The notes beneath the pieces were generated by a model that worked only from the letters and a program-made list of their open reading frames with translations, did not search any database and was not told the origin of the DNA. Shown piece after piece: positions 662-14,457 of a stretch of DNA of 14,457 nt. The translations under genes and the position numbers were made by a program. Location: contig DALYLQ010000006.1 of NCBI GenBank assembly GCA_031976225.1, positions 1,485-15,941 of the forward strand. The letters are read 5' to 3'. How positions within the stretch are numbered: position 1 is the first letter of the stretch; each line of letters begins with the position of its first letter. The stretch comes from Chitinophagaceae bacterium. Its GTDB lineage: Bacteria > Bacteroidota > Bacteroidia > Chitinophagales > Chitinophagaceae.

Positions 662-690
662 AATCACTCCTTAGGGAGTGATTTTTTATT
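662..690 (+). terminator. Rho-independent terminator of metG.
   Basis: Stem AATCACTCC (662-670), loop TTAG, stem GGAGTGATT (675-683), followed by TTTTATT. It lies 47 nt after the metG stop. Confidence 0.75.
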
Positions 691-812: not shown

Positions 813-3209
813 ATGAAACGTTCTATCAAAAACGTAGCAGTGTTGGGTTCGGGCGTAATGGGTAGCCGTATTGCCTGCCATTTTGCTGGCATTGGCGTGC
901 AGGTGTTGTTGCTCGATATTCAGCCAAAAGACACACCCGCCGATGCACCGGCAGCCATAAAGAACAAGATTGTGAACGATGCGCTGGCCGCAGCCGTGAA
1001 AAGCAACCCTAGTCCGGTGTATACCAAAGATGTTGTTAAGCGCATTACAACCGGCAACTTCACTGATAATATGAAAGACGTTGCAAAAGCCGATTGGATT
1101 ATCGAAGTAGTGGTTGAGCGTCTTGATATTAAGCAACAGGTATATGAACAAGTAGAAAAGTATCGTAAGCCTGGTACACTAATAACATCGAATACATCGG
1201 GTATACCGATACATTTATTATCGCAAGGCCGTAGCGACGATTTTAAAAAGCATTTCTGCGGCACACACTTTTTTAATCCGCCGCGTTACTTACGGTTACT
1301 AGAAATTATTCCTACCCCTGATACCGATAGCACTGTTGTAGATTTTCTAATGCATTATGGCGATGTATTTTTAGGCAAAACCACGGTTTTAGCGAAAGAC
1401 ACACCTGCCTTTATTGCGAACCGTATTGGCGTATTCGGCATCATGGCCATTTTCAATAGCATGGAGAAAATGGGCCTTACCATTGACGAGGTTGATGCAC
1501 TAACCGGCCCGTTGATTGGCAGACCTAAGAGCGCCACCTTCCGTACAGCCGATGTAGTGGGTATTGATACATTAGTGAAAGTAGCTAAAGGTGTTGCCGA
1601 TAATTGTCCGAACGATGAAGCTCGCAACATTTTCACCATCCCTTCATGGTTAGAAACCTTAGTTAACAACAACTGGTTGGGCGACAAGAGCGGACAAGGT
1701 TTCTTTAAAAAAGTAAAAACACCAGAAGGGAAAAAAGATATTCAAACGCTGAATCTTAGCACACTTAGCTATGAGCCGCGTAAGAAACCAAAATTTGCAA
1801 CGGTAGAAACTGCCAAACCTATTGACAACTTGCATAAGCGCTTAAAAGCCTTAGTAAGTGGTACTGATAAAGCGGCTGAATTTTTGCGCCACTTTCATTA
1901 TGCATTGTTCTCTTATATCTCTTTCCGTATTCCAGAAATCAGTGATGAACTATATCGTGTAGATGATGCCATGATGGCTGGTTTTGGTTGGGAAATTGGT
2001 GCTTTCGAAAGTTGGGATACACTTGGTGTTGCCAACACTGTTGACGCTATGAAAAAAGCAGGCTACCAGGTGGCTCCTTGGGTTGAAACCATGTTAGCGG
2101 CTGGCCATACTAGCTTTTACAAGGTACAACAGGGCAAAAAACTGTATTACCAACAGCATGCAATGAATGAAAGCGAAGCCGGTAACTACAAAGCACTACC
2201 TGGAGGTGATGCCTTTATTGTATTGAACAACTATAAAGACAAGCTAGTTTGGAAAAACAGTAACGCTGCTTTATACGATATTGGCGATGATGTAGTTGGC
2301 CTACAATGGAATACTAAAATGAACAGTATTGGCAGCGAAGTATTAGAAGCTGTTAATAAAAGCATCAATATTGCAGAAGAGCAATTCAAAGGACTTGTTA
2401 TTGCCAACGACGGTGCCAACTTTAGTGCTGGTGCTAACGTGGGAATGATATTTATGTTCGCTATTGAACAAGAGTACGATGAACTTGATATGGCTATTCG
2501 CATGTTCCAGAACACAATGATGCGTTGCCGTTATTCATCTGTACCAGTGGTAGTTGCTCCACACGGGTTAACATTAGGTGGTGGTTGCGAAATGAACTTA
2601 CATGCTGATAAAGTAGTTGCCGCTGCAGAAACCTATATCGGCCTGGTTGAATTAGGTGTTGGCTTAATTCCTGGCGGTGGTGGCACTAAAGAATTTGTAT
2701 TGCGTGCTGCCGATGAAATGCATGAAGACGAGCCTGAAACAATTACACTCAAACATCGCTTCTTTAACATTGCTACGGCAAAAGTAGCCACTAGTGGCTT
2801 TGAAGCTTTTGAAGCAGGTATCTTACGTAAAGGAATTGATGAAGTAGTTGTGAACCAAGGCCGCCGTATTGCCGTAGCGAAACAAGCCATTTTAGATATG
2901 CATGCCAAAGGTTATGCACAACCGCAGCAGCGTAAAGATGTTAAAGTATTAGGCCGTAGTGCTTTGGGAGCATTACATGCAGGCATTAATGGTATGTGGC
3001 GTGCCAATTATGCTACAGAACACGATGCGTTGGTAGCTCGCAAGCTTGCTTATGTAATGTGTGGTGGCGATTTGAGTGAGCCTACTTTTGTTTCAGAGCA
3101 ATACTTACTTGACTTAGAACGTGAGGCTTTCTTGAGTTTGTGTGGCGAACGCAAAACACTAGAACGTATTCAAGGTGTATTAACTACAGGTAAGCCATTG
3201 CGTAACTAA
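813..3209 (+). CDS. Bifunctional fatty-acid oxidation protein of 798 aa: 3-hydroxyacyl-CoA dehydrogenase (N-terminal NAD-binding Rossmann domain) fused to a C-terminal enoyl-CoA hydratase/isomerase (crotonase) domain.
   Basis: N-terminus VAVLGSGVMGSRIA (GxGxxG NAD-binding fingerprint) plus the HCDH core (FFNPPRYLRLLEII, ANRIG). The C-terminal half has a crotonase fold (ANDGANFSAGANV..., LTLGGGCEM, GLIPGGGGT). The HCDH-then-ECH order is the arrangement seen in Bacteroidetes FadB-like proteins, which is reversed relative to E. coli FadB. Confidence 0.9.
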   Translation: MKRSIKNVAVLGSGVMGSRIACHFAGIGVQVLLLDIQPKDTPADAPAAIKNKIVNDALAAAVKSNPSPVYTKDVVKRITTGNFTDNMKDVAKADWIIEVVVERLDIKQQVYEQVEKYRKPGTLITSNTSGIPIHLLSQGRSDDFKKHFCGTHFFNPPRYLRLLEIIPTPDTDSTVVDFLMHYGDVFLGKTTVLAKDTPAFIANRIGVFGIMAIFNSMEKMGLTIDEVDALTGPLIGRPKSATFRTADVVGIDTLVKVAKGVADNCPNDEARNIFTIPSWLETLVNNNWLGDKSGQGFFKKVKTPEGKKDIQTLNLSTLSYEPRKKPKFATVETAKPIDNLHKRLKALVSGTDKAAEFLRHFHYALFSYISFRIPEISDELYRVDDAMMAGFGWEIGAFESWDTLGVANTVDAMKKAGYQVAPWVETMLAAGHTSFYKVQQGKKLYYQQHAMNESEAGNYKALPGGDAFIVLNNYKDKLVWKNSNAALYDIGDDVVGLQWNTKMNSIGSEVLEAVNKSINIAEEQFKGLVIANDGANFSAGANVGMIFMFAIEQEYDELDMAIRMFQNTMMRCRYSSVPVVVAPHGLTLGGGCEMNLHADKVVAAAETYIGLVELGVGLIPGGGGTKEFVLRAADEMHEDEPETITLKHRFFNIATAKVATSGFEAFEAGILRKGIDEVVVNQGRRIAVAKQAILDMHAKGYAQPQQRKDVKVLGRSALGALHAGINGMWRANYATEHDALVARKLAYVMCGGDLSEPTFVSEQYLLDLEREAFLSLCGERKTLERIQGVLTTGKPLRN

Positions 3210-3222
3210 GCCTCGATGCTTT

Positions 3223-3237
3223 ATTTACCGTAAGGTA
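3223..3237 (+). repeat. Copy 3 of the recurrent motif: ATTTACCGTAAGGTA.
   Basis: Lies between the 3209 stop and the terminator stem. The same extended 17-mer TATTTACCGTAAGGTAT occurs at 11114-11130. Confidence 0.6.
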
Positions 3238-3250
3238 TACTTTTATAAAA

Positions 3251-3281
3251 AAAGCAGCTTCAATGTAGAAGCTGCTTTTTT
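3251..3281. terminator. Bidirectional rho-independent terminator shared by the convergent genes 813..3209 (+) and 3302..3733 (-).
   Basis: Perfect 11-bp stem AAAGCAGCTTC (3251-3261) and GAAGCTGCTTT (3268-3278) with loop AATGTA. It is flanked by an A-tract upstream and TTTTTT downstream, so it works on either strand. Confidence 0.8.
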
Positions 3282-3301
3282 GGTGTTATAGGTAATATGT
3301 T

Positions 3302-3733
3302 TTACACAGTAATAGCAACGGTATTTTGCAAAGTTTGTAGGGTACTGTTACCACCAATTCTAAGAATGGTACCATTGGTGTTGTATTCAATGGTGTAATC
3401 AACCAATAGCTGATCACCATTATTCACGTTAGGAATACGTATATTCTTTAATAATGCGGCACTGCTTTGCTGTGGGAACTCATTGAGCTGCATAGGAGCA
3501 ATTTCTGTTTGATACACCGGTGTTACTACGCGGCCATCTACTTTGCTTACCGCTACAATTACTTTAGCATAAGCTTGTGTGTAGATAGGTGCCGTATAAT
3601 TTTTATTAGCGTAAATAGCGAGTTGAATGTTCTGTTCTTTCACATCGCTACAAGTTTGCTGCTCTTGATGTGGTACTAATAAAAGCCCTGTAGTAAAAAG
3701 GCTGGCGAGTAAAGTGATCCAAAAAGTTTTCAT
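3302..3733 (-). CDS. Hypothetical small exported protein of 143 aa with an N-terminal signal peptide.
   Basis: The track ORF is 3302..3772, but the start is more plausibly the internal Met at 3733 (MKTFWITLLASLFTTGLLLV, a classic signal peptide). It lies downstream of the histidine kinase on the same strand and I see no recognisable catalytic motifs. Confidence 0.55.
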   Translation of the reverse strand: MKTFWITLLASLFTTGLLLVPHQEQQTCSDVKEQNIQLAIYANKNYTAPIYTQAYAKVIVAVSKVDGRVVTPVYQTEIAPMQLNEFPQQSSAALLKNIRIPNVNNGDQLLVDYTIEYNTNGTILRIGGNSTLQTLQNTVAITV

Positions 3734-3872
3734 AACAATATGTTGTTGCGTTGGGTTGATATTTTTTGACACTGCAAAGCAACATACATACTGCGTTAAA
3801 GAAATTTAAAGGGCTGATGAAGGCATAGGTAGGCGGATGTATGGTAAGCCTATTTGGATAAGTGGTAAAAGC

Positions 3873-5315
3873 TTATGCCCCTGGAAACTGTACTGTAAAG
3901 GCATTACCATGAGCATCGTTACTTTCGTAATGAAGATGGCCACCCATTTTTTCAGTTAATTGTCGGGCAATACTAAGCCCCAAACCTTTTACCTCTGTCA
4001 AATCGCGATCGCCTGTGGCAGCCTGTTGTAATCGGTTAAAAATTTCATCGAGTTTAGCTTGACCAATTAAATTTCCGGTGGTTTTGCAAGTAATCACAAC
4101 ATCGGTACCAACCACACCCGATACAATTTTAACAGTACTACCAACATCTGATAAGCGTATTACGTTGCTCAACAGCTTGTACATAAGTTGATAAGTTACT
4201 TGCTCATCTAAGTACACAGGTAGTATACCAGGTTGTAATTGAAGTTGCAATTGTACCTGATGCACCATAGCCACCTGCTTTAGATTGGCTGCTGCTTCCG
4301 ATACAATTCTATTGATATCAAATTCGGCGTAATGAAACGAATTGCGTTGTTGGTCATCCATGTTAGCTTTTGCCATCTTTTTTGCGAAAAAAGCAAAGCG
4401 TTCATTCGCTTTTTCAATCAACGCCACCACTTGCTGTTGTTGCGGTGTTAAATGATCATCTTTTAATAAATCAACCCCACTTTGAATGCTGGTATTAAAA
4501 CCATTTAAATCGTGTAACAACATTTGTAACGTAGTGTTACGTGTTTCAGAAACTTTATCTAAATGTCGCTGAATAGATGCAGCTCTAACCTTAACATCCA
4601 TTAATAATTCTTGCAGCTCAGAAAGCATACTGTTACTTGCTTCTATAATTTCATTCTTATGAATATCGTGTAATAATTTGCGGCGTTGGCTATAACTAAA
4701 TGCAGTTGCTAGTATACCAAGAATAATCAACCATCCGTAGTAATACGATTCAAAAAGTGATTGTGCCGATGCTGCACCTTGCCACCAAAAGCAACTCAAA
4801 TAGGTAAGCGACCATGCGAGTAAGGTTAGCACTAATGTATAACGGGTACGCCAGCTACTACTCCAAGCAATTCCTAACAACAATAAGCCCGTGCATGTAA
4901 TTTGTATAGGTAATGCCCTTACGGGTAAAAAAGCAGTTTGCAACGATTGCACCATCACCAATATAAGCGATACTAAAAAGCTACTAATAAATACTGTTTT
5001 TAGGTTAGCAGTTTTTACAGCAACAATGCTTACAACTGCAAGAATACTCATGAGTACTACTTCAATCAGCCATTGCTGCTGCATCCATAGTAAGTTCAGT
5101 ATCAAAAGAATAGGCAATGCCGATACCAATCGAGCCAATAAACGCCTTGCATGTAGCCGTTGAAAACGTATTAATGAATTATGAATATCTTCTTGATTAG
5201 CTTGTGCTAAAGCAAGAGGAATTGGAGTTAACATACTGCTCATAAAAATCAATAAGGGTTGCTGAATGAAGTTAGCACTTTGAATCCATATAGTCAGACT
5301 ACCGCTAATAATCAT
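3873..5315 (-). CDS. Membrane-bound sensor histidine kinase of 480 aa. It has an N-terminal polytopic sensor with about six TM helices, then a HisKA dimerisation/phosphoacceptor domain and a HATPase_c domain. No receiver domain is present.
   Basis: About six hydrophobic segments in residues 1-210. H-box LLHDLNGF (HDLxxP/G type). N-box LLSNVIRLS. G-boxes EVKGLGLSIARQL...GGHL. C-terminus ends FTVQFPGA. The N-terminal start codon choice is uncertain. Confidence 0.85.
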   Translation of the reverse strand: MIISGSLTIWIQSANFIQQPLLIFMSSMLTPIPLALAQANQEDIHNSLIRFQRLHARRLLARLVSALPILLILNLLWMQQQWLIEVVLMSILAVVSIVAVKTANLKTVFISSFLVSLILVMVQSLQTAFLPVRALPIQITCTGLLLLGIAWSSSWRTRYTLVLTLLAWSLTYLSCFWWQGAASAQSLFESYYYGWLIILGILATAFSYSQRRKLLHDIHKNEIIEASNSMLSELQELLMDVKVRAASIQRHLDKVSETRNTTLQMLLHDLNGFNTSIQSGVDLLKDDHLTPQQQQVVALIEKANERFAFFAKKMAKANMDDQQRNSFHYAEFDINRIVSEAAANLKQVAMVHQVQLQLQLQPGILPVYLDEQVTYQLMYKLLSNVIRLSDVGSTVKIVSGVVGTDVVITCKTTGNLIGQAKLDEIFNRLQQAATGDRDLTEVKGLGLSIARQLTEKMGGHLHYESNDAHGNAFTVQFPGA

Positions 5316-5335
5316 TTCTCAACGGTGTACCTTTT

Positions 5336-5349
5336 TTTACCGTAAGGTA
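5336..5349 (+). repeat. Copy 4 of the recurrent motif: TTTACCGTAAGGTA.
   Basis: Lies in the 77-bp divergent intergenic region between the histidine kinase start at 5315 (-) and the ABC start at 5393 (+). It is identical (as reverse complement) to the intragenic copy at 8976-8989. Confidence 0.6.
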
Positions 5350-5392: not shown

Positions 5393-6304
5393 ATGAGTAT
5401 TGTATTATCACTACATCAACTATCTAAAAACTACGGCAAGGTACAAGCCTTACAACAAGTAAGTTTCGATGTACCTCAAGGCTGTGTTTTTGGTATTTTA
5501 GGACCTAACGGTAGCGGCAAAACCACGCTTTTAGGTATTATTATGAACGTGCTGCAACCCACCAATGGCAACTTCACACTTTTAGGGAAACAACCATCGA
5601 ACGAAGTGCGCAAGCAAATTGGCACACTGTTAGAAACACCTAACTTTTATCATTATTTGAGTGGTGAACGTAATTTAGAAATAGCAGCCACCATTAAAGG
5701 TGTATCTAAAGCCGATATTACTACAGTACTAGAGAAAGTAAATTTATATGAACGTAGGCAAAGTAAATTTAGCACCTATAGTTTAGGCATGAAACAACGC
5801 CTAGCCATTGCGAGTGCATTACTTGGCAACCCCGATGTACTAGTACTAGACGAGCCTACCAATGGCCTCGACCCTGTTGGTATTGCAGAAATTCGCAACC
5901 TTATTATTCAACTAGCGAACGAGGGTAAAACCATTATTATGGCTAGCCACCTACTCGATGAAGTTGAAAAAGTATGTACCCATGTAGCGGTATTGCAAAA
6001 AGGAAAACTTCTCAATACAGGAACTGTTGACGAAGTATTTACCACAGGCGATAGCATTGCTACACTTCAAGCCGATGATTTAGACCAATTAGTAACTGTT
6101 ATCAAAACATTAGAAGGTGTTCAAAAAATACAAATCAAGAACAACACTTTACAGGTGCATTTCGATACAGCAATACTCTCTTTAAAAAGCATCAACTTAC
6201 ATTGCTTCAATAATGGTATTGTACTCAGTAGCTTACAGCTACAAAAACAAAGTTTAGAAAGCAAATTTTTAGCACTTACAGGTGGCCTTACGGTTAATCA
6301 TTAA
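5393..6304 (+). CDS. ABC transporter ATP-binding protein of ABC-2 / drug-efflux type, 303 aa, with a roughly 80-aa C-terminal extension.
   Basis: Walker A GPNGSGKTT, Q-loop, signature YSLGMKQRLAIASAL, Walker B VLVLDEPTNGLD, H-loop ASHLL. Confidence 0.9.
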   Translation: MSIVLSLHQLSKNYGKVQALQQVSFDVPQGCVFGILGPNGSGKTTLLGIIMNVLQPTNGNFTLLGKQPSNEVRKQIGTLLETPNFYHYLSGERNLEIAATIKGVSKADITTVLEKVNLYERRQSKFSTYSLGMKQRLAIASALLGNPDVLVLDEPTNGLDPVGIAEIRNLIIQLANEGKTIIMASHLLDEVEKVCTHVAVLQKGKLLNTGTVDEVFTTGDSIATLQADDLDQLVTVIKTLEGVQKIQIKNNTLQVHFDTAILSLKSINLHCFNNGIVLSSLQLQKQSLESKFLALTGGLTVNH

Positions 6305-7118: not shown

Positions 7119-7146
7119 AACCAACCTTCGGGTTGGTTTTTTATTG
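7119..7146 (+). terminator. Rho-independent terminator after the ABC operon.
   Basis: Stem AACCAACC (7119-7126), loop TTCG, stem GGTTGGTT (7131-7138), then TTTTTATT. Confidence 0.8.
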
Positions 7147-7151
7147 TACAC

Positions 7152-7167
7152 TACCTTACGGTAAATG
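7152..7167 (-). repeat. Copy 5 of the recurrent motif, reverse orientation: TACCTTACGGTAAATG, the reverse complement of CATTTACCGTAAGGTA.
   Basis: Exact 16-mer match to copy 2. It sits immediately after the terminator and 38 nt upstream of the 7205 start. Confidence 0.65.
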
Positions 7168-7204
7168 ATGAAGCATAAATTTACCCTTCTATCGTAATAG
7201 CCTC

Positions 7205-8233
7205 ATGCAACGAAAAACCTTTTTACTACAATCGGCAGCAGCACTTGGCGGTGCTTTATTATACTCCAATCAAGCTTTTACCGCAAGGAAAAAGCCAAAG
7301 AAAATCATACAACCACCTTTTTTAAAAACGGGTGATACTATTGGCATTGTAGCACCCTCTGGCTATGTTACTGAAGCTACGGTTAAGGCTGCTATAGAAC
7401 GCATTCAAGCATGGGGTTTTAACGTTGCGCTAGGTAACACCATTGGCCAACGTTGGGGCACTTTTGCCGACACCGACGAAGCCCGTGCAGCCGATGTGCA
7501 AACCATGATTAACAATAGAAACATTAAAGCTATTCTTTGTGCTCGTGGTGGCTACGGATGGACAAGAATCATGCACCGCATTAATTGGAAATTGCTACAA
7601 CAACAACCCAAGTGGATGATTGGCTTTAGCGATGCAACAGTAGCTCATAGTTACATCAACACGCATCTACACATAGCGAGTATTCACAGTAAAATGTGCA
7701 ATAGCTTCCCCGACGATTGGGCAACCGCAACACCCGAACAACAAGCTACTATTAACAGCATTGAACAAGCTATTACCGGCAAGCCACTTCGCTATAACCT
7801 GCCAACAGATACCAACAATCAATTAGGTACTGTAACAGCTCCAATTATCGGTGGCAACTTGCGTTGTATCGAAAACCTTGCAGGAACACCCTATGCACTT
7901 CAAACAGCAGGAAAAATACTTGTTCTTGAAGATGTTGAAGAACCGCGTTACAATATAGACCGTATGTTTTGGAACCTCTATCATAGCGGTGTACTAGCTT
8001 CATTAAAAGGACTTATTATTGGCGGATTCAGAGAAAAAGCAGCCACCGACCCTAACGATGAGTTTGGTTTAACACTTCCCCAAATTGTACTCGAAAAAGT
8101 ACAAGCATATAACTACCCTGTTGCATTTCAAATGCCAATTGGGCATCAACGAAATAACTTTGCCATCAAACTAGGTGTTACACATCAATTAAACGTGAAT
8201 GCCGAATATTGCAGTTTAGAAGCACTTGCGTAA
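7205..8233 (+). CDS. LD-carboxypeptidase (peptidase S66, LdcA/MccF family) of 342 aa with an N-terminal export signal.
   Basis: S66 hallmarks: GDTIGIVAPSG, IKAILCARGGYG, the nucleophile motif GFSDAT, and a C-terminal region with His and Glu. The N-terminus MQRKTFLLQSAAALGGALLYSNQAFTA looks like a Tat-like signal with RK in place of RR, or a Sec signal. Confidence 0.8.
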   Translation: MQRKTFLLQSAAALGGALLYSNQAFTARKKPKKIIQPPFLKTGDTIGIVAPSGYVTEATVKAAIERIQAWGFNVALGNTIGQRWGTFADTDEARAADVQTMINNRNIKAILCARGGYGWTRIMHRINWKLLQQQPKWMIGFSDATVAHSYINTHLHIASIHSKMCNSFPDDWATATPEQQATINSIEQAITGKPLRYNLPTDTNNQLGTVTAPIIGGNLRCIENLAGTPYALQTAGKILVLEDVEEPRYNIDRMFWNLYHSGVLASLKGLIIGGFREKAATDPNDEFGLTLPQIVLEKVQAYNYPVAFQMPIGHQRNNFAIKLGVTHQLNVNAEYCSLEALA

Positions 8234-9148
8234 ATGACAACAACCATAACTCCACCTTATTTACAACCCGGCGATACAATTGCCATTACTTGCCCCGCAG
8301 GTTTCTTACCACATCACAAGGTAGAAGCTTGTGTAGCAACTTTGCAACTTTGGGGCTTTCGTGTAATCGTTGGCAATACAGTTGGCAATCAACATCATTA
8401 TTTCGCAGGCACTATCGAAGAAAGAAAAACAGAAATTCAAAACTTCTTAAACGATACTACCATTCAAGCCATTTTATGTGGTAGAGGTGGCTACGGTGTT
8501 AGTCAGATAATTGATACGCTAAATTTTGAGGTATTCAAGCAGCATCCCAAATGGTTATTAGGATTTAGCGATATTACCCTACTGCTCAACCATGTACTAG
8601 CTAATTATCAAGTAGCAAGTATGCACTGTTCAATGGCGGCAGCATTTACAAAGGAGCAACCTCAACCATTGCATATTCAAGCAATACACACATTACTTAC
8701 GGGAGGCAAGCAGGCTATTACGCAAGCTTTCAATCAACATAATGTACAAGGCATAGGAGCCGGAACGCTTATTGGTGGCAACCTCACTTTAATGGCACAT
8801 ATAATGGGTACAAATAGTTTACCGCAAGGTAACAACTACCTACTTTTCCTAGAAGATGTAGGCGAGTATTTGTACAATATCGATCGTATGTTGCACCAAT
8901 TAAAGCGAGCTGGTTTGTGGCAGCAAGTGAAAGGCATTATCGTCGGCGGATTTACCGATATGAAAGATACTACGATACCTTACGGTAAAAGTATAAACGC
9001 TATTGTTAGCGAGCACCTGCATGCGTTGAACATACCAGTGGCATTCGATATGCCTATCAGCCACGGCGAGCCTAACTATCCTGTAAAAGTAGGCGGATAC
9101 TACCAACTACACGTACACGAAGCTGGCGCTATACTACAAGAAATGTAA
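8234..9148 (+). CDS. Second LD-carboxypeptidase (S66) paralog of 304 aa with no signal peptide, so presumably cytoplasmic.
   Basis: Its ATG directly abuts the previous TAA (..GCGTAAATG..). It has [20 protein letters not shown] and GFSDIT. It is clearly paralogous to the preceding gene. Confidence 0.8.
8976..8989 (-). repeat. Copy 6 of the recurrent motif, located inside the coding sequence: TACCTTACGGTAAA, the reverse complement of TTTACCGTAAGGTA.
   Basis: Exact 14-mer embedded in the codons for IPYGKS of the second LD-carboxypeptidase. It lies about 275 nt upstream of the fumC start. Confidence 0.5.
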
Positions 9149-9264
9149 CAACGCTACAACAAAGCACACTTCCGTTAATATTGATACAAAGCAGGGCAAT
9201 TACTGATAAATTCCATTGGTTACTCAACAGTTTTCGCCCACCTTTGCCGCACAAAATTATTGCC

Positions 9265-10665
9265 ATGGAATACCGTATAGAAAAAGATACGATGGGTAAG
9301 GTACAAGTACCTGCTCACGTGTATTGGGGTGCTCAAACGCAACGCAGTATCGAAAATTTCAAAATTGCGCAAGACATCAACAAAATGCCGAAAGAAATCA
9401 TTCAGGCATTTGCATACTTAAAGCATGCTGCGGCACTTGCCAATAACGAATTGGGCGTTTTACCCACTGAAAAGAAAGATGCTATTGCTACTGTATGCCA
9501 AGAAATTTTAGAAGGTAAGTTGGCCGATCAGTTTCCGTTGGTAGTATGGCAAACCGGTAGCGGCACACAAAGTAACATGAACGTGAACGAGGTAATTGCC
9601 TACCGTGCACACGTAATTAACGGTGGTTCATTACTCGATGAACAAAAATTCTTGCATCCGAACGACGATGTGAATAAAAGCCAAAGCTCTAACGATACGT
9701 TTCCAACAGCCATGCATATTGCAGCATACAAAATGTTGGTAGAGGTAACCATACCAGGCATTGAAAAACTACGTGATACCCTTGCGGCAAAAAGCAAAGC
9801 ATTCATGAATGTAGTTAAAATTGGGCGCACCCATTTTATGGATGCAACTCCACTTACCTTGGGTCAAGAATTTAGTGGTTATGTAAGCCAATTAAATCAT
9901 GGTTTAAAAGCCATCAAAAATAGCCTTGCACACCTCAGCGAATTAGCTTTGGGCGGTACTGCTGTGGGCACTGGCATTAATACCCCGAAAGGTTACGATG
10001 TTGTAGTTGCCAAACATATTGCTGCGCTTACAGGCCTGCCTTTTGAAACAGCAGAAAACAAATTCGAAGCGTTGGCAGCTCACGATGCCATCGTAGAAGC
10101 GCATGGTGCGTTGAAAACAGTAGCCGTAAGCCTTATGAAAATTGCTAACGATATCCGCATGTTATCGTCGGGGCCACGCTCAGGTATTGGCGAAATTTTC
10201 ATACCCGATAACGAGCCAGGAAGCTCTATTATGCCGGGCAAGGTTAACCCAACCCAATGTGAGGCACTTACTATGATTGCAGCACAGGTATTAGGTAACG
10301 ACGTTGCTATTAATATTGGTGGTGCTAATGGCCACTTCGAACTAAACGTGTTCAAGCCGGTAATGATTTATAACTTCTTGCACAGTGCCCGCTTAATTGG
10401 CGATGGCTGTGTAAGCTTTAACGATAAATGTGCAGAAGGTATTGAACCGCTGCACGATAACATCAAAAAACACGTTGATAATAGTTTAATGTTGGTAACT
10501 GCTTTAAACACCAAAATAGGCTACTACAAAGCAGCCGAAATTGCACAAACAGCCCACAAAAACGGCAGTACTTTAAAAGAAACTGCTGTTGCACTTGGTT
10601 ATCTTACCGCTGAAGAATTTGACCAATGGGTAATTCCGGGTAATATGGTTGGCGACATTAAGTAA
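9265..10665 (+). CDS. fumC: Class II fumarate hydratase (fumarase C), 467 aa.
   Basis: [13 protein letters not shown] and the signature [19 protein letters not shown] are the fumarase-type variants, not the aspartase-type ones. The start at the internal Met 9265 ([13 protein letters not shown]...) is the conserved FumC N-terminus. The track ORF beginning at 9181 looks like a spurious upstream extension. Confidence 0.9.
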
Positions 10666-10726: not shown

Positions 10727-11114
10727 TGCCTACTATTATCTATCTATACAATAATTACGCTACGTGAGTAATTATCCCAACATCTACCCTTTTATCCCAT
10801 CATTTCGCCACTCATCACACATACATTGCCAATAGTATGGATGTACTTACCAATCATCCCGATTGCACTAGGTGCATGAATAGCCGTAGGTATATCTTTG
10901 ACACTTCAAACTAATCAGCGCTGCGGCGCACTATTATGACTGCTTATATTGCTTCGTTATTATTCAATTTTCGCCAAAGAGTGAAACCACCAGAAGCATA
11001 ATTTATTCATCTCATTTTATTATTTCTTGTTGTTGTTGGCTGCATGTTGGCTTACATGTATAGCCGGTAATACTTGCTTTGCTGCTTATCCAATAGCACA
11101 AGACTTAATATTCT

Positions 11115-11129
11115 ATTTACCGTAAGGTA
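11115..11129 (+). repeat. Copy 7 of the recurrent motif: ATTTACCGTAAGGTA.
   Basis: Lies 30 nt upstream of the flotillin start. It is followed by an AT-rich stretch with TAAATTTTA, which resembles the Bacteroidetes -7 box TAnnTTTG. Confidence 0.6.
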
Positions 11130-11158
11130 TTATAATTTCATATCATAAATTTTATAAC

Positions 11159-13075
11159 ATGACATCGTTCTTATGGAGCTATGGATGGCTCTTTGTATTA
11201 ATGCTAGCATTGATTTTGTACAAACAAGTTTTGCGGATTTTCTTTGGTATGGTGATTGTACCCGAAGATAAAATTGGCTTAGTTACGAAAAAATTTGTGC
11301 TCTTTGGTGAACCTAAAGCCCTACCCGATGGGCGTATTATTGCTACTAAAGGTGAAGCGGGCTTTCAAGCTACAACACTAGCCCCTGGCTTGTATTGGTG
11401 GATGTGGCCTTGGCAATATGGTATTGACATGCATTCGTTCACGGTAATTCCGGAGGGTAAAATTGGCTTAGTACTTTCAAACGATGGTGCTGAACTTCCA
11501 ACAGGTAATATTTTAGCTCGAAAAGTAGAGTGTGATAACTTTCAAGACACAACTGCATTTCTTAGTAATGGTGGACAAAAAGGTAGACAAACACATGTGT
11601 TAACACCAGGTACCTACCGTATTAACACCTTTGCTTTTACTGTTACCATTGCAGAAATGACCATCATCAATGAAAATAAGGTGGGTGTTGTTACGACTTT
11701 AGATGGTGAACCATTACCTAGTAATCAAATTGCTGGTAGGCATATTGAAGGGCATAACAACTTCCAAGACGTTGATAGCTTCTTGGTACACGGGGGTAAT
11801 AGAGGCTTACAACCACAAGTAATTTTAGCAGGTAGCTACTATATTAATCCATGGGCTATTCAAATTGAGGAAATTTGGATGACAGAAGTACCTATTGGTA
11901 ATGTTGGTGTGGTAATCAGCTATATCGGAGAGGAAGGAACCGACTTAACAGGCGATGGGTTTAAGCATGGCAATATTGTAAGTAAAGGCTTTAAAGGTGT
12001 GTGGATGGAACCTTTAGGTCCGGGTAAATATCCCGTTAATAAATATACCATGAAGGTTGAATTGGTACCTACCACAAACTTAGTACTCAATTGGGCCAAT
12101 GCTCGCAGTGAAGCACATGCCCTTGATAAGAACCTAAGTACTATTACAGTGCGTAGTAAAGATGGTTTCCCTTTTAACCTAGATGTAGCACAGATTATAC
12201 ACGTACCAGCCAATGAAGCTCCTAAGGTAATTGCACGTTTTGGTAGCATGACCAATTTAGTAAGTCAGGTACTAGAACCAACTATTGGTAACTACTTCCG
12301 TAACTCTGCTCAAGACAGTGATGTGATTTCGTTCTTAACAACACGTAAAGAACGCCAACAAGCCGCTAAAAATCATATCAAAGAAGTATTAGATGAGTAT
12401 AATGTTTATGCAGTAGACACTTTAATTGGTGATATTGTTCCGCCCGAAGCACTCATGAAAACCTTAACGGATCGCAAAATTGCTGAGGAAGAACAAAAAA
12501 CCTATCAAACCCAACGTATGGCACAAGAGCAGCGCCAAGGAGTTGAAAAAGAAACGGCTATTGCTGATATGCAGAAAGAAATTGTAAAAGCGCAACAAAG
12601 TGTAGAAATTGCACAGCGTACCGCCGATGCAGCCGTTAAAAAAGCTGAGGGTGATGCTACTAGTTTAAAACTGCAAGTAAATGCCGAAGCTGAGGCCACA
12701 AAAATGCGAGCTATCGCTGAAGCAGAAGCTACTAAAGCTAGAGCCGGAGCACAAGCAGAAGCTACCAAACTAAATGCTTCTGCCGATGCTGAACGTATTT
12801 CAAAAACGGGCCTAGCAGAAGCCGAAAAAATCATGGCAATTGGTAAGAGTACCGCCGAAGCCTACGAATTACAAGTAAAAGCTATGGGTAACGATAACTT
12901 CACTCGATTCAAAATAACGGAAGCCATTGGTAAAGAAAACATAAAAATAATTCCAGATGTTTTAATTAGTGGCGGCAATGGCACCGATGGAAGCATTAGT
13001 GGCTTGCTCGGTTTGAAATTAATGGATATGCTTCAAGATAAAAATACACTTGAAACACAATCTACTAATAGCTAA
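11159..13075 (+). CDS. Flotillin-family SPFH/band-7 membrane scaffold protein of 638 aa. It has an N-terminal TM anchor, four tandem 60-75-aa repeats, an SPFH core and a C-terminal Ala/Glu-rich flotillin coiled coil.
   Basis: N-terminal helix SYGWLFVLMLALILY. Repeats begin VPEDKIGLV, IPEGKIGLV, INENKVGVV and VPIGNVGVV, each with LP.G.I...NFQD..FL..GG..G.Q..V..G.Y.IN. SPFH core DVISFLTTRKERQQAAKNHIKEVLDEYNVYAVDTLIGDIVPPEALMKTLTDRKIAEEE. EA repeats AEAEATKMRAIAEAEATKARAGAQAEATK. Confidence 0.85.
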   Translation: MTSFLWSYGWLFVLMLALILYKQVLRIFFGMVIVPEDKIGLVTKKFVLFGEPKALPDGRIIATKGEAGFQATTLAPGLYWWMWPWQYGIDMHSFTVIPEGKIGLVLSNDGAELPTGNILARKVECDNFQDTTAFLSNGGQKGRQTHVLTPGTYRINTFAFTVTIAEMTIINENKVGVVTTLDGEPLPSNQIAGRHIEGHNNFQDVDSFLVHGGNRGLQPQVILAGSYYINPWAIQIEEIWMTEVPIGNVGVVISYIGEEGTDLTGDGFKHGNIVSKGFKGVWMEPLGPGKYPVNKYTMKVELVPTTNLVLNWANARSEAHALDKNLSTITVRSKDGFPFNLDVAQIIHVPANEAPKVIARFGSMTNLVSQVLEPTIGNYFRNSAQDSDVISFLTTRKERQQAAKNHIKEVLDEYNVYAVDTLIGDIVPPEALMKTLTDRKIAEEEQKTYQTQRMAQEQRQGVEKETAIADMQKEIVKAQQSVEIAQRTADAAVKKAEGDATSLKLQVNAEAEATKMRAIAEAEATKARAGAQAEATKLNASADAERISKTGLAEAEKIMAIGKSTAEAYELQVKAMGNDNFTRFKITEAIGKENIKIIPDVLISGGNGTDGSISGLLGLKLMDMLQDKNTLETQSTNS

Positions 13076-13080
13076 AATAT

Positions 13081-13099
13081 GGGGCGGCTTAGCCGCCCC
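13081..13099 (+). other. GC-rich stem-loop of GGGGCGG, a 5-nt loop and CCGCCCC. It is a possible weak terminator or RNA-processing element between the flotillin gene and the lipoprotein gene.
   Basis: Seen directly in the sequence. No T-tract follows on the + strand, so rho-independent termination here is uncertain. Confidence 0.4.
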
Positions 13100-13151
13100 A
13101 CAAGCAAAAACCATCCAGAAAGTATTTAATTTGATACATCAACATAAACAC

Positions 13152-13489: not shown

Positions 13490-13834
13490 ATGAAAAAATC
13501 TAAACATATAGAACTAGTATTAATTACCGCAGCACTGGCAAGCTGTAACCAACCCAAATACAAAAACAACGAGTGGGAAAGCGGTAACAAAACCTATGTT
13601 CGTGCCGATAGCACAGCACCATATACGCGTACACATTACCACGGTGGTGGTGTAGGCCGCTGGTTCTATGCCTTCAGACCTTATGGCGAGTATAACAGTT
13701 TTCAAAATGGCTACAGTAAAGCTGGTTATTATTCTAACGCTATCAGCGAAAAAAGCAACATTGGTTATAACAACAATAAATTCGGCATTGTACGTGGCGG
13801 CTTTGGTCGTAGCTCTTACAGTGCTAGTAGCTAA
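13490..13834 (+). CDS. Small Gly/Tyr/Asn-rich lipoprotein of 114 aa. It may be a DUF1190 (YgiB/YjfM)-like partner of the downstream ATP-grasp gene.
   Basis: MKKSKHIELVLITAALASC NQ.. has a lipoprotein signal and lipobox LASC. The body is low-complexity and Gly/Tyr-rich, ending GIVRGGFGRSSYSASS. It sits directly upstream of a YgiC-like gene, as ygiB and yjfM do in enterobacteria. The homology is inferred and not verified. Confidence 0.5.
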   Translation: MKKSKHIELVLITAALASCNQPKYKNNEWESGNKTYVRADSTAPYTRTHYHGGGVGRWFYAFRPYGEYNSFQNGYSKAGYYSNAISEKSNIGYNNNKFGIVRGGFGRSSYSASS

Positions 13835-13873
13835 GCATTTACCGTAAGGTGATAACTGCCTTACGGCAAATGC
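13835..13873. repeat. Copies 8 and 9 of the recurrent motif arranged as a 15-bp imperfect inverted repeat around a 9-nt spacer. It could form a hairpin or be a dyad operator.
   Basis: GCATTTACCGTAAGG (13835-13849), then TGATAACTG, then CCTTACGGCAAATGC (13859-13873). There is one mismatch (A/G), the same variant position as in the 625/721 pair. It lies between the lipoprotein stop (13834) and the ATP-grasp start (13906). Confidence 0.65.
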
Positions 13874-13905
13874 TAACGCTATCAATATTATTTTAATATT
13901 ATTAC

Positions 13906-14457
13906 ATGCAACGACATATTATTACGCCGCGACATCAATGGCAACATGCGGTGGAAAAATTAGGCTTTGGCTTTCACACACATCCCATAGCCTATTGGGA
14001 TGAATCAACAGCCTACAGCTTTTCTATGAACGAAATAGTGGCATTAGAAAAAGCCACATCAACACTTTGGGATATGTGCCTTAGTGCAGTACAACACATT
14101 ATTGATGAAGAACGCTACACGCAGCTAAGCGTACCAACAACAGCAATACACCTCATAGAAAAAAGTTGGCAAGAAGATCATCCGTCTATTTACGGACGCT
14201 TCGATTTGTGCTATAAAAACAATGAAATCAAACTTTTAGAATTCAATGCCGATACACCTACAAGCTTATTTGAAGCTGGTATTGTGCAATGGTTTTGGCT
14301 AAAAGATATTGATGCCAATAAAGATCAATTCAATAGCATACACGAAAAACTGATTGATTATTGGAAGTATCTTAAAAACTATCTGCATAACGATACACTT
14401 TATTTTACCTGCTTAAAAGAAACGCTTGAAGACCTTACAAATACAGAGTATCTACGC
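13906..14457 (+). CDS. Glutathionylspermidine synthetase-like ATP-grasp protein (GSP_synth family, YgiC/YjfC-type). The N-terminal 184 aa are present and the gene continues past the window end.
   Basis: ATG at 13906, with frame 1 open to the last base. My translation is MQRHIITPRHQWQHAVEKLGFGFHT...RFDLCYKNNEIKLLEFNADTPTSLFEAGIVQWFWL...DQFNSIHEKLIDYWK. This matches my recollection of the conserved pre-ATP-grasp region of E. coli YgiC/YjfC (a ...KLLE.NADTPTSLYE... block). It is absent from the supplied ORF track because no stop codon falls within the window. Confidence 0.8.
   Translation, partial: MQRHIITPRHQWQHAVEKLGFGFHTHPIAYWDESTAYSFSMNEIVALEKATSTLWDMCLSAVQHIIDEERYTQLSVPTTAIHLIEKSWQEDHPSIYGRFDLCYKNNEIKLLEFNADTPTSLFEAGIVQWFWLKDIDANKDQFNSIHEKLIDYWKYLKNYLHNDTLYFTCLKETLEDLTNTEYLR

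Follow-up and report, generated by a model that had tools for sequence, protein, structure and literature searches.

An inverted repeat upstream of an ATP-grasp gene in Chitinophagaceae is a pair of copies of a dispersed, genus-specific motif with features of a DNA uptake sequence

The inverted repeat at positions 13835-13873 of the 14,457-nt stretch of Chitinophagaceae DNA analysed here (the window) is a head-to-head pair of copies of one short, genus-specific signal that is dispersed over the genome, not a locus-specific operator. The signal occurs on both strands at about one site per 2 kb, is evenly spaced and chiefly intergenic, and is nearly unchanged across 15% sequence divergence. By analogy with the DUS of Neisseriaceae and the USS of Pasteurellaceae, we tentatively propose, as the best-supported reading but at a little short of an even chance, that the motif is a DNA self-recognition tag.

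The two 15-nt arms of the dyad, GCATTTACCGTAAGG at 13835-13849 and CCTTACGGCAAATGC at 13859-13873, are separated by a 9-nt spacer (tgataactg, 13850-13858) and are complementary at 14 of 15 positions, the sole mismatch being an A opposite a C at arm position 7. They can be extended to 16-nt arms (13834-13849 and 13859-13874) with 15 of 16 positions complementary. The extended arm 1 begins on the final base of the TAA stop codon (13832-13834) of a predicted lipoprotein gene and reads (A)GCATTTACCGTAAGG followed by T on the + strand, and the extended arm 2 reads (A)GCATTTGCCGTAAGG followed by C on the - strand. When 40 dinucleotide-preserving shuffles of the window were searched for comparable dyads (15-nt arms, at most one mismatch, spacer of 3-30 nt), the mean was 0.075 per shuffle. 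A 45-nt dyad RNA has a calculated folding energy of -22.3 kcal/mol (z = -6.4) when read from the + strand and -24.2 kcal/mol (z = -8.4) from the - strand; as single-stranded DNA the corresponding values are -14.1 and -15.2 kcal/mol. An earlier sequence-only reading of this DNA had described a near-perfect dyad able to form a stable RNA hairpin, and both points are borne out by these values.

Upstream of the dyad, the gene at 13490-13834 (+) encodes a 114-aa Gly/Tyr-rich predicted lipoprotein without a Pfam match. Downstream, the gene at 13906-14457 (+), truncated by the end of the window, encodes a glutathionylspermidine-synthase-like ATP-grasp protein (GSP_synth, PF03738). The hairpin had been placed 30 nt upstream of the ATP-grasp start codon; the position upstream is correct, but the distance from arm 2 to the ATG (13906-13908) is 32 nt. 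We found no recognisable promoter in the 72-nt gap between the two genes, and in relatives the pair is nearly gapless; the genes are therefore probably co-transcribed, and the hairpin probably forms within their joint transcript. Promoter-like matches in a consensus scan of the window were at chance level (40 against 39.6 expected), and the dyad is absent from the list of terminator-like elements that the same scan produced for the window. The sequence 3' of arm 2, TAACGCTATCAATATT, contains no T-run, and an Rfam scan of the whole window returned no family at the gathering threshold.

Each arm is one copy of a motif of about 15 nt, CATTT[A/G]CCGTAAGG[T/C]. The earlier observation that the dyad is built from two motif copies was confirmed by counting: with up to three mismatches allowed, the dyad 15-mer has 11 matches in the window against 0.48 expected, a number reached by none of 200 shuffles. 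The core CCGTAAGG is the top 8-mer of the window with 11 exact copies, tied with AAAAAGCA, and the 12-mer CCTTACGGTAAA is present in seven exact copies in the 14.4-kb window. Alignment of 73 copies gave the consensus CATTT[A/g]CCGTAAGG[T/c][a/g], with a weaker GCGT box about 4 nt upstream of many intergenic copies. Searching the literature for the motif string gave primers and unrelated matches only.

The bases immediately flanking the core (-1/+1) covary, with 38 copies A..T, 15 G..C, four A..C and none G..T (Fisher P = 5e-9). Both the A..T form (A-type) and the G..C form (G-type) would be able to close a mini-hairpin, R-CC-GTAA-GG-Y, with a GNRA-type loop. For a single motif this structure is weak, having a stem of 3-4 bp and an energy of -3.8 kcal/mol as RNA or -1.8 kcal/mol as DNA. 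We also noted a third variant, TTTTACCCGTAAGGGCAT, in which -1/+1 is the pairing-compatible C..G; it is represented by two in-gene copies, one in the window (4917-4925, - strand) and one on a contig of the same species (L001, position 10649, + strand). The two main types differ in their placement. Intergenic single copies are A-type, while intergenic G-type copies are always in pairs, and the majority of intergenic pairs combine an A-type with a G-type copy. The dyad studied here is such a pair, with an A-type arm 1 and a G-type arm 2, which accounts for the A.C mismatch in the long hairpin. Motif copies follow stop codons or lie within genes, between co-directional genes or in divergent promoter regions, and in at least five independent cases an A-type arm begins 1-13 nt past the upstream stop codon.

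The distribution of the motif was measured in a contiguous single-species sample of 33,022 nt. It covers a single region and consists of the window, 9 kb upstream of it (L088), obtained via a look-up of the hydroxyacyl-CoA dehydrogenase, and a contig of the metagenome-assembled genome GCA_003456175.1 (L001), found via the lipoprotein gene. This gene is present on contigs from several samples; among them are L001 and contigs of a strain variant with 98% identity (L002, L004 and L006). The 33-kb sample contains 20 motif copies at 16 sites, nine copies on the + strand and 11 on the - strand. Although intergenic DNA makes up 9% of the sample, 16 of the 20 copies are intergenic; the other four lie in genes. 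The interval between sites averages 1,890 nt with a coefficient of variation of 0.36, a spacing far more even than expected from uniform placement (P = 5e-5) and also more even than under a null model with 12 sites in random intergenic gaps and four in coding DNA (P = 0.001). Other loci of the lineage were retrieved by searching for motif pairs, which biases their copy counts, and the unbiased sample is the 33 kb only. Within L001, duplicated or overlapping segments at 1537-3852 (GCA_003456175.1, DMPB01000017.1; corresponding to window 8686-10021) fragment the second LD-carboxypeptidase gene and the fumarase gene. These look like assembly artefacts, since the window, L088 and L002 are intact.

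A search of 5.8 billion proteins with the second LD-carboxypeptidase of the window (gene at 8234-9148) returned one cluster at 98% identity, from the same species, one at 83%, from a genome in JGI sample Ga0209278, and otherwise matches of at most 53%. Two close clusters followed by such a drop indicate that the motif-bearing lineage, with its two species, is phylogenetically isolated within Chitinophagaceae. A corresponding search with the fumarase was set aside, as this protein is too conserved (88-92% identity across genera) and the top match (L226) is not syntenic. The locus that bears the 83% homologue (L227, 20.9 kb) is fully syntenic with the composite 33-kb sample and 84.8% identical to it over a 21-kb alignment. 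Of 15 motif sites compared, 12 are unchanged in this sister species, both arms of the dyad included, and several of the 12 sit in flanks that can barely be aligned. Two sites differ by one base, one being degenerate in the sister species (at window position 5337) and the other exact there (the site at window 6286). At the last site, at composite position 24253, the partner arm is missing from the sister species, with an accompanying indel. Identity is 94.8% in motif columns but 82.6% in other intergenic DNA and 84.3% in coding DNA (P = 7e-7). The spacer of the dyad is not conserved: it reads taatacctg in the sister species against tgataactg in the window, two changes in 9 nt.

Within the window, a G-type copy (627-641, -) lies 11 nt past the stop codon of the MetRS gene and is conserved in the sister species, and an A-type copy (720-734, +) is intergenic. 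The two form a tail-to-tail pair that flanks a canonical T-run terminator hairpin at 662-683; in the sister species, the pair is conserved along with its inner flanks. Three further A-type copies are found on the + strand: at 3221-3235, 12 nt past the stop codon of the gene for a 798-aa hydroxyacyl-CoA dehydrogenase and conserved in the sister species despite barely alignable flanks; at 5333-5347, in a divergent promoter region, where the sister species carries its one-base variant (G to A); and at 11113-11127, upstream of a flotillin-like gene. Two lie on the - strand, at 7154-7168, which is intergenic and directly past a terminator-like hairpin at 7119-7138, and at 8978-8992, within the second LD-carboxypeptidase gene, where the copy reads PYGK and is conserved in the sister species. 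A one-mismatch copy, TTAACCGTAAGG (6286-6300, -), lies in the final codons of an ABC ATPase gene, reading LTVN. The canonical T-run terminators of the window (662-683 and 7119-7138) are separate elements that adjoin motif copies.

Two minor features of this region were also noted. The LD-carboxypeptidase (Peptidase_S66) genes at 7205-9148 are tandem paralogues without a gap, the first stop codon ending at 8233 and the second ATG starting at 8234, and this arrangement is conserved in the sister species. The 98%-identical strain variant (L002, L004, L006) lacks window positions 11132-13100, which comprise the flotillin-like (Band_7) cassette, a promoter region and a terminator hairpin, and has 43 unrelated bases in their place. 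The difference is a deletion, as the flotillin-like cassette is present in the sister species (L227); its left breakpoint lies 4 nt past the motif copy at 11113-11127.

Across 97 kb of lineage sequence, 16 of 67 motif copies lie in genes, and every stop-free reading frame is used. The encoded peptides are L-T-[V/A]-[N/K] in nine cases, F-[T/A]-V-R in three, A-L-R-Q in two, and P-Y-G-K and I-Y-R-K in one each. The frame that contains TAA is used by the G-type alone, in which TAA becomes CAA. The tripeptide LTV is encoded by CTTACGGTA in seven of 13 cases, among 96 synonymous options. Comparison with solved homologues placed the motif codons collinear with conserved residues and without insertion in a 2-hydroxyacid dehydrogenase (ALRQ against ALKE), PheT (ERNLTVNDL against ERKLVDTDI) and MetX (HALTANSNA against HTLTSSAHV); in LdcA the PYGK segment aligned collinearly and gap-free with 6uuk. 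Two more in-gene copies lie in variable loops, where the alignment is ambiguous. The collinearity with conserved residues indicates that in-gene copies arose by substitution and not by insertion. Transposition is unable to yield such a pattern; sequence-level bias or selection is able to do so.

Scanning a metagenome collection for TTACCGTAAGG, followed after 0-30 nt by CCTTACGGYAA, returned 23 stretches. Eleven came from large contigs (167-843 kb) of the single JGI sample Ga0209278 and one more (L216) from an ENA sample, and all 12 of these lineage stretches bear the same extended motif. The sister species carries dyads of the same type at many loci that are otherwise unrelated, often 1-13 nt past a stop codon and with unrelated spacers of 7-30 nt. 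Their contexts include the region behind SecA, the gap between an MFS transporter gene and a class II tRNA synthetase gene, and the vicinity of a T9SS cargo gene. None of the dyads examined elsewhere is followed by a U-tract or T-run, and the terminator scan of the window flags no dyad.

When the full GSP_synth protein was used to scan GTDB species representatives, the best relative had 72% identity, and the nearest matches were Chitinophagaceae genomes assembled from metagenomes. The motif is not enriched in any of the 80 loci of other genera recovered in this way, which served as a negative control, and is therefore specific to a narrow lineage. Searching the same 80 loci by tblastn with the motif-bearing proteins revealed no syntenic orthologues. 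The gene pair was examined in 16 Bacteroidota relatives. In every one, GSP_synth lies next to the lipoprotein gene in the same orientation, often with a gap of less than 15 nt, and no dyad is shared.

These data bear on the proposal that the dyad is a locus-specific element, that is, a dimeric transcription-factor operator or an RNA attenuator or processing hairpin governing the ATP-grasp gene. A stable hairpin 32 nt 5' of the ATG, within a likely co-transcript, would suit such a role, as would arms that are identical in the sister species while the spacer is altered. However, all motif sites are equally conserved, whatever their location, and the arms are copies of a motif that recurs about every 2 kb in genes and between them. 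Dyads of the same type with spacers of 7-30 nt adjoin genes as unrelated as those for SecA, an MFS transporter and a tRNA synthetase, which speaks against a dedicated switch for the ATP-grasp gene. The sequence-only reading had named the lack of a dyad in relatives that keep the two genes adjacent and co-oriented as evidence against itself, and at the family level this is what the 16 Bacteroidota relatives display. Conservation of the dyad in orthologous loci extends only to the sister species, which carries the motif genome-wide, but not to these relatives. The palindrome of an operator would be restricted to a regulon and conserved with the regulated gene, whereas here the half-site is genome-wide. 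A gene-specific operator or attenuator is not supported, and we regard a locus-specific function as highly improbable.

The dyad shares with Rho-independent terminators and with intercistronic stabilising hairpins, such as the REP in malE-malF, a GC-containing stem of 15-17 bp directly past a stop codon in an operon-like gene pair. It differs from them in that its arms belong to a genome-wide motif and that the T-run terminators of the window are separate elements. In an intrinsic terminator a GC-rich hairpin is directly followed by a U-tract; the dyad is not, and an attenuator of the canonical intrinsic-terminator kind is contradicted at this and every other dyad examined. No Rfam family was matched either. 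At most, the hairpin might act as a 3'-exonuclease barrier, a weak pause site or a modulator of read-through within the co-transcript. Because a U-tract and locus-specific conservation are both lacking, we regard any such local RNA effect as a possible by-product and not as the purpose of the hairpin.

Uptake sequences are the textbook example of how a genome labels its own DNA for exchange akin to sex. If the motif were a tag of this kind, a competence receptor would prefer DNA that bears it, and biased uptake with recombination, selection, or both would spread and keep copies wherever they are tolerated. Inverted pairs would accumulate directly behind stop codons, and the dyad described here would be one such composite site, directly behind the stop codon of the lipoprotein gene. 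DUS and USS are lineage-specific, hyper-abundant motifs of 9-15 nt without strand skew. The present motif is likewise short and lineage-specific, being missing from neighbouring genera, and occurs on both strands at about one copy per 1-2 kb with even spacing. As in Neisseria, the majority of copies are intergenic, and inverted pairs a few to about 30 nt apart lie just downstream of genes. Copies within genes are made by substitution in tolerated frames, with single-base gain or loss between species, and conservation is stringent at about 85% identity. Neisserial DUS are mostly intergenic, about 1.1-1.5 kb apart and often in inverted pairs no more than 21 nt apart, and they are under stringent conservation in species that share about 85% identity (PMC2397512). 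Uptake sequences inside genes shun stop-containing frames (bioRxiv 10.1101/2025.10.24.684340).

Several features sit less well with an uptake sequence. The host is an uncultured lineage of Bacteroidota represented by MAGs and metagenomes, and the motif sequence is unrelated to known DUS and USS. In a 2025 survey (bioRxiv 10.1101/2025.10.24.684340), Neisseriaceae and Pasteurellaceae were the only families known to have uptake sequences, which gives the assignment a low prior. Unlike DUS and USS, the motif has two covarying sub-types that keep a GNRA-loop mini-hairpin. A receptor for double-stranded DNA does not predict this -1/+1 covariation, which is typical of REP stems, and the mostly mixed A-type and G-type intergenic pairs, which leave an A.C mismatch, resemble REP heterodimers. 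About 70-90% of DUS/USS pairs lie within predicted terminators (10.1101/2025.10.24.684340), whereas the dyads here are without U-tracts and adjoin canonical terminators instead of forming part of them. An uptake model does not account for the covariation, for the polarity of the A-type/G-type pairs or for the upstream GCGT box. Two covarying forms that keep the hairpin would point to recognition of single-stranded or hairpin DNA, in contrast to the double-stranded recognition of DUS by ComP-type receptors.

The main rival explanation, which we consider unlikely, draws on the stem covariation and the mixed pairs. It holds that the motif is a very short REP/REPIN (BIME)-like element in which a 5' CATT(T) tag precedes a 4-bp stem capped by a GTAA loop, and that a Y1 HUH nuclease (RAYT/TnpA(REP)) recognises it as single-stranded DNA. 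The dyad would then be a REPIN-like doublet spread by this enzyme, and effects on mRNA would be incidental. Like REP, BIME and REPIN sequences, the motif is a hairpin-forming repeat with a conserved 5' tag and complementary stem variants (A..T and G..C), and it forms small, even triple, clusters and inverted doublets, both head-to-head and tail-to-tail, that include A-type/G-type heterodimers. Described REP families have complementary stem sub-families and heterodimers that may protect against SbcCD (PMC3733652), and the Bacteroidetes RAYT subclasses 2.4 and 2.6 have atypical hairpins (PMC6006769). The strong intergenic bias, often towards the 3' ends of genes, also fits a mobile repeat, as does the arm at composite position 24253, which one species has and the other lacks, with an indel. 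However, REP and REPIN sequences are strictly or nearly strictly extragenic, whereas four of the 20 copies in the unbiased 33-kb sample, and 16 of all 67, are in genes. About a quarter of the copies are in frame within conserved coding sequence, where they are collinear with conserved residues, cause no indels and are written via codon choice, which transposition cannot achieve. At 15% divergence, 12 of 15 orthologous sites are the same in both species, and random insertion into intergenic gaps would produce far less even spacing. A REP is an imperfect palindrome, 20-65 nt long, whose stem has at least 5-7 bp and whose 5' tag is GT[AG]G or CGTC. The motif is much shorter (about 15 nt) and lacks a GTAG or CGTC tag, and its stem has 3-4 bp (-1.8 kcal/mol as DNA), where described REPs have 5-13 bp. 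A regular-expression search for the RAYT HUH/Y1 motif found nothing in about 130 kb of lineage loci, which is weak evidence for a gene expected in single copy. The genes beside triple clusters, which encode an MFS transporter, a tRNA synthetase and a T9SS cargo protein, are ordinary housekeeping genes.

We also weighed, and likewise judge improbable, that the motif is some other DNA-level signal, either a site, repeated at regular intervals, that binds an abundant protein of chromosome organisation or maintenance, or a HIP1-like motif kept by methylation or repair bias, with the dyad being simply two adjacent sites. Even spacing, orientation independence, strict conservation and in-gene substitution would suit any selected signal in double- or single-stranded DNA. 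Cyanobacterial HIP1 (GCGATCGC) offers a precedent as a hyper-abundant short motif of unknown function (PMC4390886) that is found in and between genes, is made by substitution and has an unsettled role. HIP1, however, is an 8-bp perfect palindrome tied to orphan methyltransferases, whereas the present motif is 15 nt long, asymmetric, biased to intergenic DNA and often paired. Chi and KOPS are skewed between strands; with nine + and 11 - copies the motif is not, and a polar signal of that type is ruled out. No known nucleoid or segregation signal combines such density and length with an absence of strand skew. A MITE, bounded by terminal inverted repeats, is also ruled out, as single copies and collinear in-gene copies predominate.

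Carried to its full extent, the proposed uptake function would make this the first DNA-uptake-sequence system outside Proteobacteria, with a 15-nt tag in two covarying GNRA-mini-hairpin forms in this Chitinophagaceae genus. We regard this wider claim, which rests on the same analogy, as possible but rather doubtful. If it is true, uptake sequences evolved independently in another phylum, and the hairpin covariation would place the system between uptake sequences and REP elements. It would also provide a concrete sequence to test in a phylum in which Riemerella columbina is naturally competent and prefers its own DNA but no motif was found (PMC7965970). Were the motif REP-like instead, it would be an unusually short REP that colonises coding sequence by substitution, which is unexpected. 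For annotation, such dyads in this lineage should not be taken as gene-specific regulatory sites.

Our scans also returned hairpins and motif matches from other organisms, which we do not assign to this family. Five stretches (L205, L207, L218, L219 and L220; from JGI Ga0209916/Ga0209941 and ENA ERZ778017) represent a different lineage of about 35% GC with long clustered repeats and other flanks; these repeats contain a ...TACCGTAAGGcat... hairpin (for example CCAATCCTTACCGTAAGGCATATATAGATCTATATATGCCTTACGGTAAGGATTGG) in up to 14 copies in 9.5 kb. Six more (L203, L208, L212, L215, L217 and L225) are isolated CC-GTAA-GG hairpins from unrelated organisms. Scanning IMG/VR with the 15-mer gave 114 stretches, nearly all single chance-level matches and two CRISPR arrays, among which no phage of the lineage was recognised. 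The CRISPR-like arrays (L103 7400-7677 and L133 7419-7631) have a 66-nt period, and their 36-nt repeat, ATTGTTAGTAACCATTTACCGTAAGGTAATCACAAC, contains the exact 15-mer ATTTACCGTAAGGTA, which is probably a coincidence. Finally, a Chitinophagales relative (L022) has a very strong hairpin of its own in the equivalent intergenic position, at about 7765-7845, roughly 100 nt 5' of GSP_synth (CCCCCAGCCCCTGAAGGGG...CCCCTTTAGGGGTTGGGGG, -46 kcal/mol), which may be a repeat element of that genome.
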